Assembly: GCA_041483895.1 (NCBI GenBank)
Contig: JBGPGO010000003.1
Location: forward strand, 202,792-266,791
Origin: Fimbriimonadia bacterium
GTDB taxonomy: Bacteria; Armatimonadota; Fimbriimonadia; Fimbriimonadales; JABRVX01
Direction of reading: 5' to 3'
DNA length: 64,000 nt
A model generated the notes under the pieces. It made no database searches and was not told the origin of the DNA. It saw only the letters and a program-made list of their open reading frames with translations. Of this stretch, positions 29,309-56,316 are shown in pieces; position 1 is the first letter of the stretch, and each line of letters opens with the position of its first letter. The position numbers were made by a program, and so were the translations under genes.

Positions 29309-32300
29309 GTGCCACGCGACGCGAGCATCAAGAAGGTCCTGGTCATCGGTTCAGGTCCGATTGTGATCGGGCAGGCGGCGGAATTTGATTATGCCGGGAC
29401 ACAGGCGTGCCGGTCGCTTCGCGAGGAAGGCGTTTCCGTCGTCCTCGTCAACTCCAATCCCGCAACAATCATGACTGACGCGGCTACAGCGGATCGGGTG
29501 TACATCGAGCCGCTCACGATCCCCTTTCTCGAGCGCATTATCGCCATCGAAAAACCGGATTCGCTGTTGCCGTCGCTAGGGGGGCAGACCGGACTCAATC
29601 TCGCCGCCCAGCTCGCGGACGAGGGGATACTAGAAAGATATGGCGTCCGTCTTCTGGGTACGCCGCTCTCGGCGATTCACAAAGCGGAGGACCGGGAGAT
29701 GTTCCGCGATGCCATGCGGCATATCAATGAGCCCGTTCCGGAAAGCTGGGTCGTCGTGTCGCGGGAACAGCTAGCGGATGTCGCGGAGATTGCTCCGTAC
29801 CCGTGCATCATCCGCCCCGCCTACACTCTCGGCGGCACGGGCGGCGGCGTGGCCCATGACAAAGAAGAGCTGATCGAGATCGGCCGACTCGGTCTCTCCC
29901 TCTCCATGCGCAATCAGATATTGGTCGAACGCAGCCTGCTCGGTTGGAAAGAGCTCGAGTATGAGGTGATGCGCGATGGCGCGAACAACGCGATCACCAT
30001 CTGCAACATGGAGAACCTGGATCCGATGGGAGTGCATACGGGTGACAGCATCGTGGTCGCTCCCAGCCAGACGCTGAGCGATATCGAATATCAGTTGCTG
30101 CGGTCCGCATCGTTGCGAATCATCCGCGAGCTTGGCGTAGAGGGCGGGTGCAACGTACAATTTGCCGTCAGCCCGCACGGCTTCGATTACTATGTGATCG
30201 AGGTCAATCCGCGCGTGTCACGGTCTTCCGCGCTGGCATCTAAGGCGACGGGATATCCCATCGCGCGCGTATCGGCAAAGGTTGCGATCGGTCTTCGGCT
30301 GGACGAAATCGACAACGCCGTGACGAAGAAGACCAAGGCATTTTTCGAACCGGCATTGGACTATTGCGTGGTGAAAATCCCACGATGGCCGTTCGACAAA
30401 TTCTTAGAGGGCGACCGGCGGTTGGGCACGCAGATGAAGGCGACCGGAGAAGTGATGGCGATCGACCGGACCTTTGAGGCGGCCCTGATGAAGGCGCTCC
30501 GCTCGCTGGAATTGGACGCCCACGATCTCCGACATCCCCGCTTTTCCGGTATGCCCGATGACGAGCTTTGGACCGCGGCCCGCACCGCCACCGACGATCG
30601 CCTGTGGGCTGTCATCGAGGTTCTCCGACGTTCTGGAGGATTAGTGTCTGGAGGGCTCCGTTCCATCGGAGCCGATTTGCGACATGGCTCCGATGGAACG
30701 GAGCCCTCCAGAACGGAGTCTTCCAATAAAGCCGGCTCCGATGGAACGGAGCCCTCCAGAACGGAGCCCTCGATCCGGGCGCTCGCGCGCGAAACGGGCA
30801 TCGACTTGTGGTTTCTGGAAAAGCTCCACCGGCTCGTGCAAATCGAAAAAGAGATTTCGGACACGCCGATGGATGGCAACAGCTTGCGCCGATGGAAGCA
30901 GTTAGGTTTCTCCGATCGCACGATCGCCGCAATGCTGGGAATGACGGAAAGGGAAGTGCGGGAACGGAGGAAGATCGAAGGCATCCTTCCCGCCTACAAA
31001 ATGGTCGATACGTGCGCCGGGGAGTTTGAGGCAGTCACGCCCTATTATTACTCCACCTATCATGGCGAATCCGACGACACTCCTCCGCGCGACGGTTCGG
31101 CTATCCTCGTCCTCGGCTCCGGTCCCATCCGCATCGGCCAAGGCGTGGAGTTCGATTACTGCAGCGTCCACGCCGTCCAAGCGCTGCATGACGCCGGTCG
31201 GCGATCGGTCATCATCAACAGCAATCCGGAAACCGTCAGCACCGACTTCGACATCTCCGACGCCCTCTACTTCGATCCGATAACGCTCGAAGACGTGCTG
31301 AACCTGTGCAATCACGAGCAACCGGAAGGGGTCATTGTGCAGTTCGGCGGGCAGACTGCCGTCAACCTCGCCCGGCCGCTGCAAGAAGCGGGGATCAAGC
31401 TGATGGGGACCTCGGCGGATGCGATGGAGGCGACCGAAGACCGCGACAAATTCGAGCAGCTTCTCACGCGATTGGACCTGCCGAAGCCGCCGGGGCAAGG
31501 AGTGACGGCGTTGGTGGACGCGCGAAAAGTGGCCGCGCGGATCGGCTATCCGGTGCTGGTCCGGCCGTCGTTTGTTTTAGGGGGCCGGGCGATGCGAGTG
31601 GTTCACGCCGAGGATGAGCTGACCGCCTATTGGGCGGGCGCGGCGGCGGCATCGGCGGATGCGCCGGTACTTGTAGATAAGTTTATCGTTGGCGGTGAGG
31701 CGGAAGTCGATCTGGTATGCGACGGATCGAACGTGGCACTCAGCGGCATCATGGAGCATATCGAAGCGGCCGGCGTGCATTCCGGCGACAGCATGGCGGT
31801 TACTCCTCCCATCACGCTGACGGCAACCGTATGCGAGCAGATCGAGGAGAGCGCGCGCCGAATCGCTTTGGAGGCGGGGATAGTCGGCATGCTCAATATC
31901 CAATACGTGATTCGCGATGGCGTCCCGTACGTTTTGGAAGTGAATCCGCGCGCCAGCCGAACCATCCCGTACATTAGCAAGGTGATTGGCGTTCCGCTCG
32001 TTCAGCTTGCGGTGCGGGCCATGTTGGGAGAGCCGATAGCCGAGGTCGTTCGCGCCACCGGCAAGGTCTACGCGGTCAAAGCGCCGGTGTTCAGCTTCCA
32101 AAAGTTGACCAGGGTCGAACCGATGCTGGGACCCGAGATGAAATCCACGGGCGAGATTATGGGGGTGGACGACGACTATCCCTCGGCGTTGCTCAAGGCC
32201 TTCATCGCCGCCGGGATGCCGCCGCAGCCGACGGGTTTGGCGCTTCTCACCGTGTCGGATCGCGATAAGGAGCGGATCGTGCGAATCGGGAAAAAGCTCA

Positions 32301-33912: not shown

Positions 33913-34983
33913 ATGCTAGGTATCTGGACCACTCTCTTCGGGTTTTTTGTGGGAGCCGCCGCCGGGAGCTTCGTCAACGTCCTTGTCTGGCGGCTCCCGC
34001 GCAACCAGTCCATCAATAACCCCAAGTGGAGCTATTGCCCGAACTGCAAGGCCCGCCTCACGCTTTTGGACCTATTCCCCCTGCTCAGCTTCCTGTTCAG
34101 CCGTGCCCGGTGCCGCCACTGCGGAAAGCCGATCGCGTGGCGATATTTTTGGGTAGAGATTATGTGCGCCTCCCTTTGGGCCGGTCTGTGGTATCAGAAT
34201 ATGGTGATCGGTTGGCAGCCTGCCGTCTTCCTGGCCTACGCGCTTTTTGCCACCGCTCTCGTCGCGATCGTATTTATCGATATCGAGTTTTTCCTCATCC
34301 CCGACGAGCTGAACACCTGGCTTCTCCTGTGCGGCATCGGGCTTGGAGTCTATTTCCTGGTGATCGGAGACCTGCGCGGCTGGCAGCAGGTGGGTTCGTT
34401 GCATCTGCCGGCATTCTTGGTCGGGATGGTGGCGGGTACGGCAATTCTGTGGCTAATCGCGTTTTTGGGCAGAATTCTGTTTCGCAAAGATGCCATGGGG
34501 CATGGGGACATCAAGATGGCGCGGGGCATGGGGGCGCTGCTGCCGTTCCCGTTTCTGGTGGCCTCTATCGGATTGGCAATCGCGTTTGGGGCGGTGATTG
34601 GGGTCATTTTGCTGATACTGTTGGGGAACAAGAGTGAGCCGGAAGTTGCGCAGGAAGCGCCGGAAGAGGAAAATCCCAAGCCAGAGCCGGTTGGGGTGCT
34701 TCTCGTCGCCCTCCCGATCTATCTCCTCTGTCTGGATGCCATTACGACCCTCATCCCGCCGCTCATGAAGCCGCTGGATGGCGTTACTACGCGATTGATA
34801 AAGTCCGTCGCACCTGGTTGGGAGCCGCCGTCCGAAGACCCGGCAGAAGATGACTGGAAGCCGACCGCGTCGACAATCCCATTTGGCCCCTGGCTGGCGG
34901 CGGGGGCATTGTGCGCCATGCTGCTTGCGGGGCCCATCGAAACCGGCGTACGAGCCTATATCCGATGGGCGACAGGGGGTTGA
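33913..34983 (+). CDS. pilD: Prepilin peptidase (A24A)
   Basis: GSFVNVLVWRLP, CPNC...CRHC, FIDIE, MGHGDIK, IPFGPWLA. Confidence 0.92.
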   Translation: MLGIWTTLFGFFVGAAAGSFVNVLVWRLPRNQSINNPKWSYCPNCKARLTLLDLFPLLSFLFSRARCRHCGKPIAWRYFWVEIMCASLWAGLWYQNMVIGWQPAVFLAYALFATALVAIVFIDIEFFLIPDELNTWLLLCGIGLGVYFLVIGDLRGWQQVGSLHLPAFLVGMVAGTAILWLIAFLGRILFRKDAMGHGDIKMARGMGALLPFPFLVASIGLAIAFGAVIGVILLILLGNKSEPEVAQEAPEEENPKPEPVGVLLVALPIYLLCLDAITTLIPPLMKPLDGVTTRLIKSVAPGWEPPSEDPAEDDWKPTASTIPFGPWLAAGALCAMLLAGPIETGVRAYIRWATGG

Positions 34984-34991
34984 CGTCGTCC

Positions 34992-35056
34992 GATGTGTTT
35001 GGGTCTTGGGTATCGGTGCTAGGGCGGATATCGGAACGCGTGAACCCCGACACTTC
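34992..35056. repeat. Degenerate copy of the GTCGGGGTC...GACCCCGAC hairpin family
   Basis: GATGTGTTTGGGTC...ACCCCGACACTTC. Confidence 0.55.
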
Positions 35057-35071
35057 TGGGGTAAGGCTTAA

Positions 35072-35159
35072 ACAATAAAGACGGCCCGAAGGCCGTCTGT
35101 TTTATAAGTGGGGCCGCATCCGTGCGGCCTCCTTCGTTCCCACCATCCTTGGTGTCCAC
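35072..35159 (-). ncRNA. Candidate GGA-rich small RNA (CsrB/RsmY/RsmZ-like)
   Basis: Own promoter and terminator; hairpins CACC-AAGGAU-GGUG and GGCCGC-ACGGAU-GCGGCC; five GGA motifs; no ORF. Confidence 0.7.
35074..35104. terminator. Bidirectional intrinsic terminator
   Basis: AGACGGCC-CGAA-GGCCGTCT (UUCG loop on the - strand) with A/T-rich flanks. Confidence 0.85.
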
Positions 35160-35164
35160 TGCTT

Positions 35165-35194
35165 ATCTTAGCAAACCACTTTAACGTTTGTCAA
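35165..35194 (-). promoter_or_regulatory. Near-consensus sigma70 promoter
   Basis: TTGACA-N18-TAAGAT with TGn extension on the minus strand. Confidence 0.8.
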
Positions 35195-35212
35195 CCCCTA
35201 TCCCGGTATTTT

Positions 35213-35848
35213 TTACAAGTTTTCGTCCTTGGGGGCGGTTGGGCGGGGCAGGGGGAATAGGTCTTCCGGCCTCGTCATGCTGTACCAGGGGCCTCCCAAA
35301 CGTCCGATCAGATCAATTTTCGTCGTGTCCGGAACCCCATCCGTCAGGATGGATTCGTCGTAATGGCACATCACAATCTCGCCGATCACATAGTTCGCGG
35401 CGAGCGGACCTTCCCCGTGCCGGACGACCTGGAACAGCTTGCATTCGAAATTCGCCGGACTTTCGGCCACCAGCCAGGGCCGGATTTTCGTCGCCGGTTT
35501 CGGCGTGAACCCGGCTTTTTCCCACTCGCTCACCCCATACGGATACTCATAGCTGGCCTCGTTGACCTTCGAGGCCATCGACCGGGTGACGACCGAAATC
35601 ACATACTCCCCCGTCGCTTCGACGTTCACCAGCGTGTGTTTGGGAGCGGAATCGCGGGTGTTGGTTGGGGAAAAGGTCAAGCTCGGCGGATTGGAGCCGC
35701 CCATGATGAAAAAGCTGAACGGAGCGAGGTTGGGAACTCCTTCCGGCGATAGGGTGGATACGAAGGCGATCGGGCGAGGCGCGATGCACGGAAGGATCTT
35801 GGCGTATCGTTCGCGCGGCGGCAGCTCGGCGGGGTCGAACGAAAGCAT
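35213..35848 (-). CDS. Flavin reductase-like (DIM6/NTAB) protein
   Basis: PRPIAFVST, NLAPFSFF, KHTLVN, ESPANFEC, GRLGG. Confidence 0.9.
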   Translation of the reverse strand: MLSFDPAELPPRERYAKILPCIAPRPIAFVSTLSPEGVPNLAPFSFFIMGGSNPPSLTFSPTNTRDSAPKHTLVNVEATGEYVISVVTRSMASKVNEASYEYPYGVSEWEKAGFTPKPATKIRPWLVAESPANFECKLFQVVRHGEGPLAANYVIGEIVMCHYDESILTDGVPDTTKIDLIGRLGGPWYSMTRPEDLFPLPRPTAPKDENL

Positions 35849-55104: not shown

Positions 55105-56316
55105 ATGGCACGGTTCGTTTACAACGCCGTGGATCCGCAGGGTCGTACTGTCCGCGGAACCATGGATGCAGACAACGAGGAGTTCGTCCTAGCAAAACTG
55201 CATGAGCAGCAGATGCACGTGACGAACGTAAAGCAGGCACGTGCCGCCTCGGAAGGCAAACGTGGTTTTGGCCCGGCCAAGAAGATAAAGCTCCAGTCGC
55301 TTGTCGTCTTTTCTCGCCAGTTCGCCACGATGATCGACGCGGGTATCCCAATTCTCCGCTGCCTCGACATTCTCCATGGCCAGACAAAGGACCAGATCCT
55401 AAAAGAGACGCTGAACCTGGTTCGCGGAGATGTCAAGGGCGGTATGTCGCTCAACGAAGCGATGGCGAAGCATCCCAGAGTTTTCAGCAAGCTGTACGTC
55501 AACATGATCCGCGCGGCCGAAATCGGCGGTATCTTGGACCTCATCCTGGACCGGCTCTCCCACTTTCTCGAATCGGAAATGGAGATCCGCGGCAAGATCA
55601 AGTCCGCCATGATGTACCCGACGATGGTGTTGTGCGCTTCGTTCTGCATGCTGTTCGCCCTCTTCACGTTCGTCCTCCCGAAATTCAAGGACATCTTCCT
55701 TGGGATGGATGTGGAGCTGCCTGCGATCACGGCGGCCCTGTTCACTATCGGCGACATCTTCCAGGCCTATTGGTGGGCGATTCTGGGAACGATAGCCGGC
55801 GCCTTTTTCGGAATCAAGAGCTACGGGAAGACGAAGAAGGGCCGCTATCACATGGACTACCTGAAACTCCGTGCGCCGATCATTGGCGATCTGAGTCTCA
55901 AGCTCTCGGTGGCACGGTTCTCCCGGACGTTTGGAACGCTCATCGGCAGCGGCGTCCCCATGATGCGGTGCCTGGAAATCACATCGGAAACGAGCGGCAA
56001 CACGGTGTTGGCCGGGGCAATCGATGCGGCAAGAGCGGCGATCCGAGAAGGAAAGCAGCTCAGTCATCCGTTGGCGGCAAGCGGTCTGTTCCCCACGATG
56101 GTAACGCAGATGATCGACATCGGGGAAGAGACCGGTCGGCTCAACGAAATGCTTGTAAAAGTGTCCGACTTCTATGACGCTGAGGTTTCCCAGACGGTCA
56201 AAGGATTGACCTCGATGATAGAACCTCTCCTCATAGTTTTCATGGGCCTGATCGTCGGCTTCATCGCGATCTCGGTCATGACTCCCATCTTCAAGCTGGT
56301 CAACTCAGTCAAGTAA
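55105..56316 (+). CDS. pilC: Type IV pilus / T2SS platform protein (PilC/GspF)
   Basis: FSRQFATMIDAGIP, KIKSAMMYP, RFSRTFGTLIGSGVP, IGEETGRL, SMIEP. Confidence 0.95.
   Translation: MARFVYNAVDPQGRTVRGTMDADNEEFVLAKLHEQQMHVTNVKQARAASEGKRGFGPAKKIKLQSLVVFSRQFATMIDAGIPILRCLDILHGQTKDQILKETLNLVRGDVKGGMSLNEAMAKHPRVFSKLYVNMIRAAEIGGILDLILDRLSHFLESEMEIRGKIKSAMMYPTMVLCASFCMLFALFTFVLPKFKDIFLGMDVELPAITAALFTIGDIFQAYWWAILGTIAGAFFGIKSYGKTKKGRYHMDYLKLRAPIIGDLSLKLSVARFSRTFGTLIGSGVPMMRCLEITSETSGNTVLAGAIDAARAAIREGKQLSHPLAASGLFPTMVTQMIDIGEETGRLNEMLVKVSDFYDAEVSQTVKGLTSMIEPLLIVFMGLIVGFIAISVMTPIFKLVNSVK

Follow-up and report, generated by a model that had tools for sequence, protein, structure and literature searches.

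A single-copy small RNA of the Fimbriimonadales with predicted CsrA-binding loops: a candidate minimal CsrA sponge beside or instead of FliW

We analysed a window of 64,000 nucleotides (contig JBGPGO010000003.1, positions 202,792 to 266,791 of the forward strand) from the 3.9-Mb genome of a Fimbriimonadia bacterium, called the source genome (G000) below. The features of the locus are collected in Table 1. On the minus strand at 35072..35194, in the interval between pilD and a flavin reductase-like gene, the sequence of a candidate small RNA (sRNA) gene was as an earlier note had described it. The promoter named there, TTGACA-N18-TG-TAAGAT, was confirmed: hexamer agreement is 10/12 (TTGACA plus TG-extended TAAGAT), and it was the only promoter-like site in 34500-35800, against 0.5±0.6 in shuffled sequences. 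The same note had counted five GGA motifs, two of them as ANGGA in hairpin loops, which is correct for the core of the source genome (loops AAGGAU and ACGGAU). It missed, on the other hand, the basal stem in which 5' GUGG pairs with 3' CCAC to close a multiway junction, as well as a third ANGGA situated in that junction; the 5'-most of the five GGA sits in the basal stem. The 8-bp UUCG terminator is present at 35098-35079 but scores on both strands, and it is probably common to the sRNA and the convergent pilD. Folding of a 91-nt stretch of this copy gave a z value of -4.2, none of 200 shuffles being equally stable, and the minimum-energy fold did not contain the basal stem P1. Nowhere else in the whole 3.9 Mb do two C-ANGGAN-G hairpins lie within 60 nt of each other as they do in the candidate sRNA, for 0.02 pairs expected and 51 single hairpins of this type genome-wide. 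No paralog was found in the source genome, where the second-best match of covariance model R1 scored 20.8 bits, and tRNA/tmRNA prediction over the window returned nothing.

Table 1. Coordinates of the candidate sRNA, its predicted elements and its neighbours in the window
Feature	Position	Strand	Remark
-35 hexamer TTGACA	35189..35194	-	also kept in G001/G002
-10 hexamer TAAGAT with upstream TG	35165..35170	-	spacer to -35 box of 18 nt
Predicted sRNA transcript, ~86-90 nt	35070..35160	-	start inferred from -10 box, end from terminator
Conserved core	35108..35159	-	basal stem P1: 35159-35156 pairs with 35111-35108
Hairpin P2 (CACC/GGUG), loop AAGGAU, predicted CsrA site 1	35141..35154	-
Junction GGAACGAAGGA with AAGGA, predicted CsrA site 2	35130..35140	-	P3 not formed in the family of G000
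Hairpin P4, 6 bp, loop ACGGAU, predicted CsrA site 3	35112..35129	-
8-bp UUCG terminator	35079..35098		scores on both strands
pilD, prepilin peptidase	33913..34983	+	PF06750, PF01478; convergent neighbour, outside the element
Flavin reductase-like gene	35213..35848	-	PF01613; ends 19 nt before the -35 box; outside the element

Two further features were observed in the window. Within carB (30654-30760), REP-like palindromes have been inserted in frame, adding a repeated peptide; they have 39 genome-wide matches at <=2 mismatches. On one strand the loop of these palindromes reads ANGGAN, but it is closed by G-C. Between carB and pilD, the segment 32681-33879 (+) holds two overlapping ORFs of 166 and 233 aa without Pfam match, which give the impression of a regulator and nucleotidyltransferase-like pair.

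BLAST recovered the core in both genomes of the same family (2/2), with 49 of 52 bases identical and one compensatory pair change. These two homologs kept the promoter hexamers and had different neighbours; the proximity to pilD, to which the earlier note had drawn attention, is thus true of the source genome but incidental. Covariance models were built in three rounds (R1, R2, R3). Of 151 Fimbriimonadales (Armatimonadota) genomes, 93 yielded one copy scoring >43 bits with R3: the source genome, 2/2 genomes of family f1, 71/98 of f2 and 19/20 of f5, for 0/1 in f3 and 0/29 in f4. All other R3 matches in the order scored <28 bits. No copy >43 bits was found in the remaining 58 of the 151 genomes, so the sRNA is dispensable or has diverged there. 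These order-wide tallies include the unpublished genome G036, which is one of the 93 RNA-bearing genomes and also one of those with csrA and no fliW discussed below (1 of 17, and 1 of the 16 that keep the RNA). Weak R3 matches in G078, G066, G122, G061 and G074 and second matches in G103, G138 and G147 were inspected and not counted. The second match of G147 (L273, G147:C50:97313-97361 +) has a -10 box and lacks both loop GGAs; it is possibly a decayed duplicate.

Outside the order no strong match appeared, the best scoring 27.4 bits with R2 (137 genomes) and 29.4 bits with R3, and none of the weak matches inspected had both the complete architecture and a -10 box in place. In searches over 40 genomes 37 candidates per genome were scored, so weak relatives may escape. 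csrA itself was found in 78 of 151 genomes sampled across the phylum. A pattern scan of GTDB returned 107 stretches; among the 80 listed, 72 scored >48 bits and the other eight, at <25 bits, were judged to be chance matches. Seventy of the 72 carry Armatimonadota, Fimbriimonad or Chthonomonas in their title. The two others, L172 (on a 1.7-kb contig) and L201, fit the family in sequence and flanks, and we read them as binning or labelling errors. Viral contigs gave 0 pattern matches. Two loci of family f27 (L296, L300) hold tandem repeats of single ANGGAA-loop hairpins, and csrA was not found in either genome.

The analysis of structural conservation covered 75 of the copies found, 73 of them distinct, as selected by the loci retrieved. 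In a four-helix model 98.7% of the cells were paired and 10 of 15 pairs were compensatory, a value reached by none of 500 shuffles; controls in which the model was slid along the alignment gave 36-51% paired cells. As the alignment behind these figures (A6) was fitted to the model, we also ran MAFFT and RNAalifold unfitted on 29 sequences, which recovered P2 and P4 and not P1; folded one by one, 20 of the 29 formed P1. In the 73 distinct sequences, three of the four P1 pairs change on both sides and 99.7% of cells are paired. Four of the five modelled P4 pairs are compensatory. P2 is nearly invariant (CACC/GGUG) and for that reason has little covariation support. One pair in the junction is U-A in 38 and A-U in 30 of the 75 copies, which suggests that a 2-bp mini-helix, P3, closes the junction in other families.

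At the predicted CsrA sites, ANGGA is present in loop 1 of 61/75 copies (GGA in 66/75, lost in nine), in the junction of 71/75 and in loop 2 of 70/75, so that the loops are kept in homologs while the stems covary, and what is conserved family-wide is three ANGGA, not five GGA. Within the sites A and GGA are fixed and N and X are free: among 68 six-base motifs of loop 2, N is G24/C23/A14/U7 and X is U33/A16/C14/G5. The pair closing loop 2 is C-G in 66 and U-G in 7 of the 75 copies. Three divergent copies (G037, G072, G119) have GGA at all three sites on rewritten stems. According to the accessible text of PMC4005645, the high-affinity site for CsrA/RsmE is an ANGGAX hexaloop sitting immediately on a stem, its N and X being looped out; the loop pattern of the sRNA agrees with such a hexaloop on a C-G pair. 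The sequence of P2 (CACC/GGUG) and of the junction is more conserved than a sponge would require, a hint of some further constraint.

Several features point to an independent transcription unit. In 61 of 75 homologs a TAnnnT box precedes the core by 2-12 nt, for 4, 5, 4 and 7 of 75 in four control windows lying farther away on the upstream side; among the 61, 19 also have TTG at a spacing of 16-19 nt. Crude ORF picks in 35 loci with long flanks gave 19 in which the next ORF runs in the same direction as the sRNA and 15 in which it is on the other strand; one locus had no next ORF. Pfam searches assigned the neighbours, co-oriented ones included, to unrelated families, and in eight loci, that of the source genome among them, a Pfam-supported convergent gene lies within 125 nt. 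Since neighbours are variable and often convergent, the RNA appears to be a stand-alone gene. No ORF is conserved in the family, as the earlier note had stated for the locus: the AUG of loop 2 would open merely five codons in the source genome. The -10 box, the neighbours and the lack of a conserved ORF thus define an independent non-coding unit from sequence alone. The length of ~88 nt given earlier is predicted for the copy of the source genome but does not describe the conserved unit, which spans ~55 nt. A separate terminator-like hairpin follows only nine of the 75 homologs, and elsewhere the basal stem is followed by a pyrimidine-rich tail (75%, versus about 57-63% further on), which puts the probable length of the conserved RNA at ~55-65 nt. 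We regard it as almost certain that this is a real, conserved and uncatalogued sRNA family.

Both csrA and fliW, which the earlier note had proposed to look for, were found in the source genome, in a flgL-fliW-csrA cluster on contig C18. The CsrA protein (PF02599, 89 bits; NCBIfam csrA above cut-off) keeps R44, present in 34 of 34 genomes examined, and N55, and has a C-terminal extension. N55 is described in the accessible part of bioRxiv 10.1101/2020.07.02.184341 as a CsrA residue critical for control by FliW. In 33 of the 34 genomes the ribosome-binding site (RBS) of csrA lies under an ANGGAN hexaloop whose stem has 3 bp or more, closed by C-G in 30/34 and with N evenly spread; the type is GCC-ANGGAG-GGC (e.g. 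L001:1475-1500). For comparison, a C-G-closed hairpin occurs at 26 of the 791 ORFs of the source genome that have ANGGAN near a possible start. Its recurrence at csrA across the order points to a conserved autorepression. The source genome also has two flagellin leaders, one with an ACGGAC hairpin and AAGGAGG, the other without ANGGA sites. We take this to indicate that the motif of the sRNA loops is the one that the CsrA of this lineage would read. A PilC/GspF-family gene at 55105-56310 (+) has its RBS inside a C-ANGGAG-G hairpin; with flagellin it belongs to the 26 candidate CsrA targets of the source genome, which are leads only.

Among the 151 genomes of the order, 147 have csrA and 130 have fliW; with csrA near-universal, its co-occurrence with the sRNA is barely discriminating. 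The 93 RNA-bearing genomes comprise 76 with csrA and fliW, 16 with csrA and no fliW, and one with neither (G129, in 160 contigs, probably an assembly gap), so that csrA accompanies the RNA in 92/93, related genomes not being independent. Flagellin was absent from all 17 genomes with csrA and no fliW (for G138, as judged from its absence in the match list) and present in 8/8 other genomes tested. The sRNA is kept in 16 of these 17. Their CsrA (L274-L289; 16/16 examined) has lost N55 and the C-terminal extension and measures 60-65 aa, whereas that of fliW-bearing genomes has N55 and 68-81 aa (18/18). The 17 genomes belong to two families whose other members retain fliW, so that, counted by family, fliW was probably lost at least twice. 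In genus g3 the sRNA is present in 9/10 genomes without and 5/18 with fliW, a trend only, because these relatives are not independent. Conversely, no free-standing copy >43 bits was found in 26 of the 102 genomes of f1, f2 and f5 that have both csrA and fliW, nor in the 29 of f4.

The two families without a strong copy gave weaker candidates. In the f3 genome (G004), a 16.7-bit candidate with three ANGGA, not recovered by R3, lies at L137:1048-1107 (-); its contig also carries csrA, ~6 kb away. It follows a small ORF that also precedes the sRNA in six f5 loci, three of which show nrdJ as well; on account of this nrdJ-ORF-RNA synteny the candidate is probably a divergent ortholog. In f4, 15 of 29 genomes gave matches of 20-27 bits inside the 3' end of nrdJ, which encodes a class II ribonucleotide reductase. 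The fold lies in the last ~140 nt (L081, L082, L084, L256-L267; e.g. L082:1501-1559, minus) and has a basal stem of 9-13 bp, an A(C/U)GGAC hairpin and a second GGA. Codons for invariant residues are themselves invariant at 7/12 places within the fold, versus 8/62 upstream and 0/9 downstream; the fold also contains one synonymous pair change that is compensatory, and at the N position the residue changes between Thr and Met. This look-alike fold may be a source or a relic of the sRNA gene.

The reading of the locus that we prefer, with a probability of roughly three in four, is that of a minimal sRNA that would sequester CsrA, acting beside or instead of FliW and having no sequence relationship with CsrB/RsmZ. 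The RNA would be transcribed from its own sigma70-type promoter and fold into a compact branched structure, in which two stem-closed ANGGAN loops and the junction ANGGA would mimic CsrA-repressed RBSs, including those of csrA and flagellin. By binding CsrA dimers it would titrate CsrA off mRNAs and set a threshold on repression, and it might affect motility or envelope genes. In flagellated Fimbriimonadales it would work alongside the allosteric antagonist FliW; in lineages without flagella and FliW it would be the only known candidate antagonist. We consider it very likely that the RNA binds CsrA, and likely that it acts mainly as a sponge. The protein-sponge reading of the earlier note thus remains the best supported; counting against it, three sites in ~55 nt offer a small capacity beside that of CsrB.

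This low number of sites, the extra conservation in P2 and the junction and the co-oriented downstream ORF in 19/35 loci would also suit an RNA that binds CsrA without titrating it, either because CsrA stabilises or presents it for pairing with an mRNA or because it is the CsrA-sensing leader of a co-oriented gene. CsrA-assisted sRNA-mRNA pairing is known for B. subtilis SR1 (accessible text of PMC7652899). The conserved single-stranded parts of the RNA are however the GGA sites, no other conserved seed being visible, and a leader is difficult to reconcile with the eight convergent neighbours within 125 nt and with co-oriented neighbours that are mutually unrelated. We consider this explanation unlikely. 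Nor is it probable that the RNA binds a different protein or forms a housekeeping ribonucleoprotein, the GGA serving another partner or a tertiary fold, even though a single copy, an order-wide presence, a conserved multiway junction, a near-invariant P2 and the failure to find it in other csrA-bearing Armatimonadota would fit such a role. The pattern of variation (A and GGA fixed, N and X free, C-G closure) fits CsrA recognition instead, the csrA RBS lies under the same hairpin throughout the order, and neither tRNA/tmRNA prediction nor any Rfam housekeeping family accounts for the RNA.

Twin hairpins right after a promoter, with ACGG in 26/61 loop-1 and 23/68 loop-2 motifs, recall a cis-acting riboswitch-like leader. 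The guanidine-II riboswitch, for example, has twin ACGR-loop hairpins and lies upstream of guanidine-related genes. In the sRNA, C is not invariant at the second loop position, the downstream genes are unrelated and often convergent, and no riboswitch family matched, which makes this reading very improbable. Least probable of all is that the locus is a repeat element, a small ORF or the product of chance: hairpins form easily in GC-rich genomes, the source genome has REP-like hairpins with ANGGAN-like loops and GGAGG precedes the loop-2 AUG in some copies, but the comparative data contradict it, with a single copy per genome in 93 genomes, covariation, a positioned promoter and a loop-2 AUG that requires X = U, true in only 33/68 hexaloops.

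If the RNA is indeed a sponge, its distribution bears on how the two forms of CsrA antagonism relate. Reviews describe sRNA mimicry and FliW binding as 'two mutually exclusive mechanisms' (accessible text of PMC7366521), and whether both work jointly in any species 'remains to be determined' (accessible text of PMC7652899). The 76 genomes with csrA, fliW and the candidate sponge hold the very pairing that reviews treat as exclusive, and together with the 16 RNA-bearing genomes without fliW and flagellin they form matched natural pairs for a shift of CsrA from flagellin control to wider regulation. A three-site RNA of ~55 nt is easily synthesised and would define a near-minimal sponge. A broader scenario, to which we give somewhat better than even odds, is that an independently evolved minimal sponge alongside FliW let CsrA outlive the loss of the flagellum at least twice in one order. 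There, a CsrA without N55 and the FliW-binding tail would have been left to an RNA antagonist, repeating on a small scale the change from a protein to an RNA antagonist that took place in the Gammaproteobacteria, with the f4 nrdJ fold maybe as source or relic of the sRNA gene.

The candidate was compared with known RNA families and systems. By sequence, the likeness to CsrB/RsmZ proposed in the earlier note did not hold: no Rfam family reached its threshold, PrrB_RsmZ (RF00166) scoring 23.9 bits in the source genome for a cut-off of 44, and no Csr/Rsm family appeared at E<=5 in 20 homolog loci. The RNA therefore belongs to a separate family. It nevertheless resembles CsrB/CsrC and RsmX/Y/Z in being a stand-alone small RNA with several ANGGA in stem-closed loops, in a genome with CsrA. 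It differs from them in its three sites in ~55 nt (CsrB has 22 GGA, according to the accessible text of PMC7652899), its closure by a basal stem and its consensus sigma70 promoter. In ~200 nt upstream of the copy in the source genome, no match to a GacA/UvrY-type box consensus was found at <=3 mismatches. Its host also sets it apart from Gammaproteobacterial sponges, being an armatimonadote and mostly fliW-positive. The RNA thus likely works like a Csr/Rsm sponge and yet stands outside those families.

Closer in architecture is TwoAYGGAY (RF01731), described as two GGA-loop hairpins on a common basal stem in the accessible texts of PMC4333381 and bioRxiv 10.64898/2026.09.22.753630. The sRNA likewise has two hairpins on a common basal stem, but its loops are ANGGAN and not AYGGAY (in loop 2, N is a purine in 38/68 and X in 21/68) and its third site lies in the junction. 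TwoAYGGAY is multicopy and repeat-associated in Pseudomonas, whereas the sRNA is single copy with its own promoter. The family gave 0 matches at E<=10 in the source genome and none in 20 homolog loci. Bacillaceae-1 (RF01690) matched neither the locus of the source genome nor the 20 homolog loci. Its reverse complement is likewise a predicted two-site CsrA binder outside the Gammaproteobacteria (PMC4333381, accessible text), of uncertain strand, while that of the sRNA is fixed by the promoter. Both families are presented in the accessible parts of PMC4333381, bioRxiv 10.64898/2026.09.22.753630 and PMC2864571 as proposed, unvalidated CsrA binders outside the Gammaproteobacteria. The novelty claimed in the earlier note stands for the lineage, no description having been found in the largely open-access literature searched (a non-Rfam motif catalogue could hold the RNA). 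The idea of a CsrA-binding sRNA outside the Gammaproteobacteria is not new, since candidates from other lineages had been predicted before (accessible text of PMC4333381).

The system nearest in its proteins is that of FliW, CsrA and flagellin, as at the hag leader of B. subtilis or the flaA leader of C. jejuni, with which the source genome shares the flgL-fliW-csrA cluster, a CsrA with N55 and C-terminal extension, and a flagellin leader with two ANGGA. In that system the flagellin mRNA leader is the only RNA antagonist described, as far as the accessible text of PMC4894983 extends; to this arrangement the Fimbriimonadales add a dedicated candidate sRNA gene.
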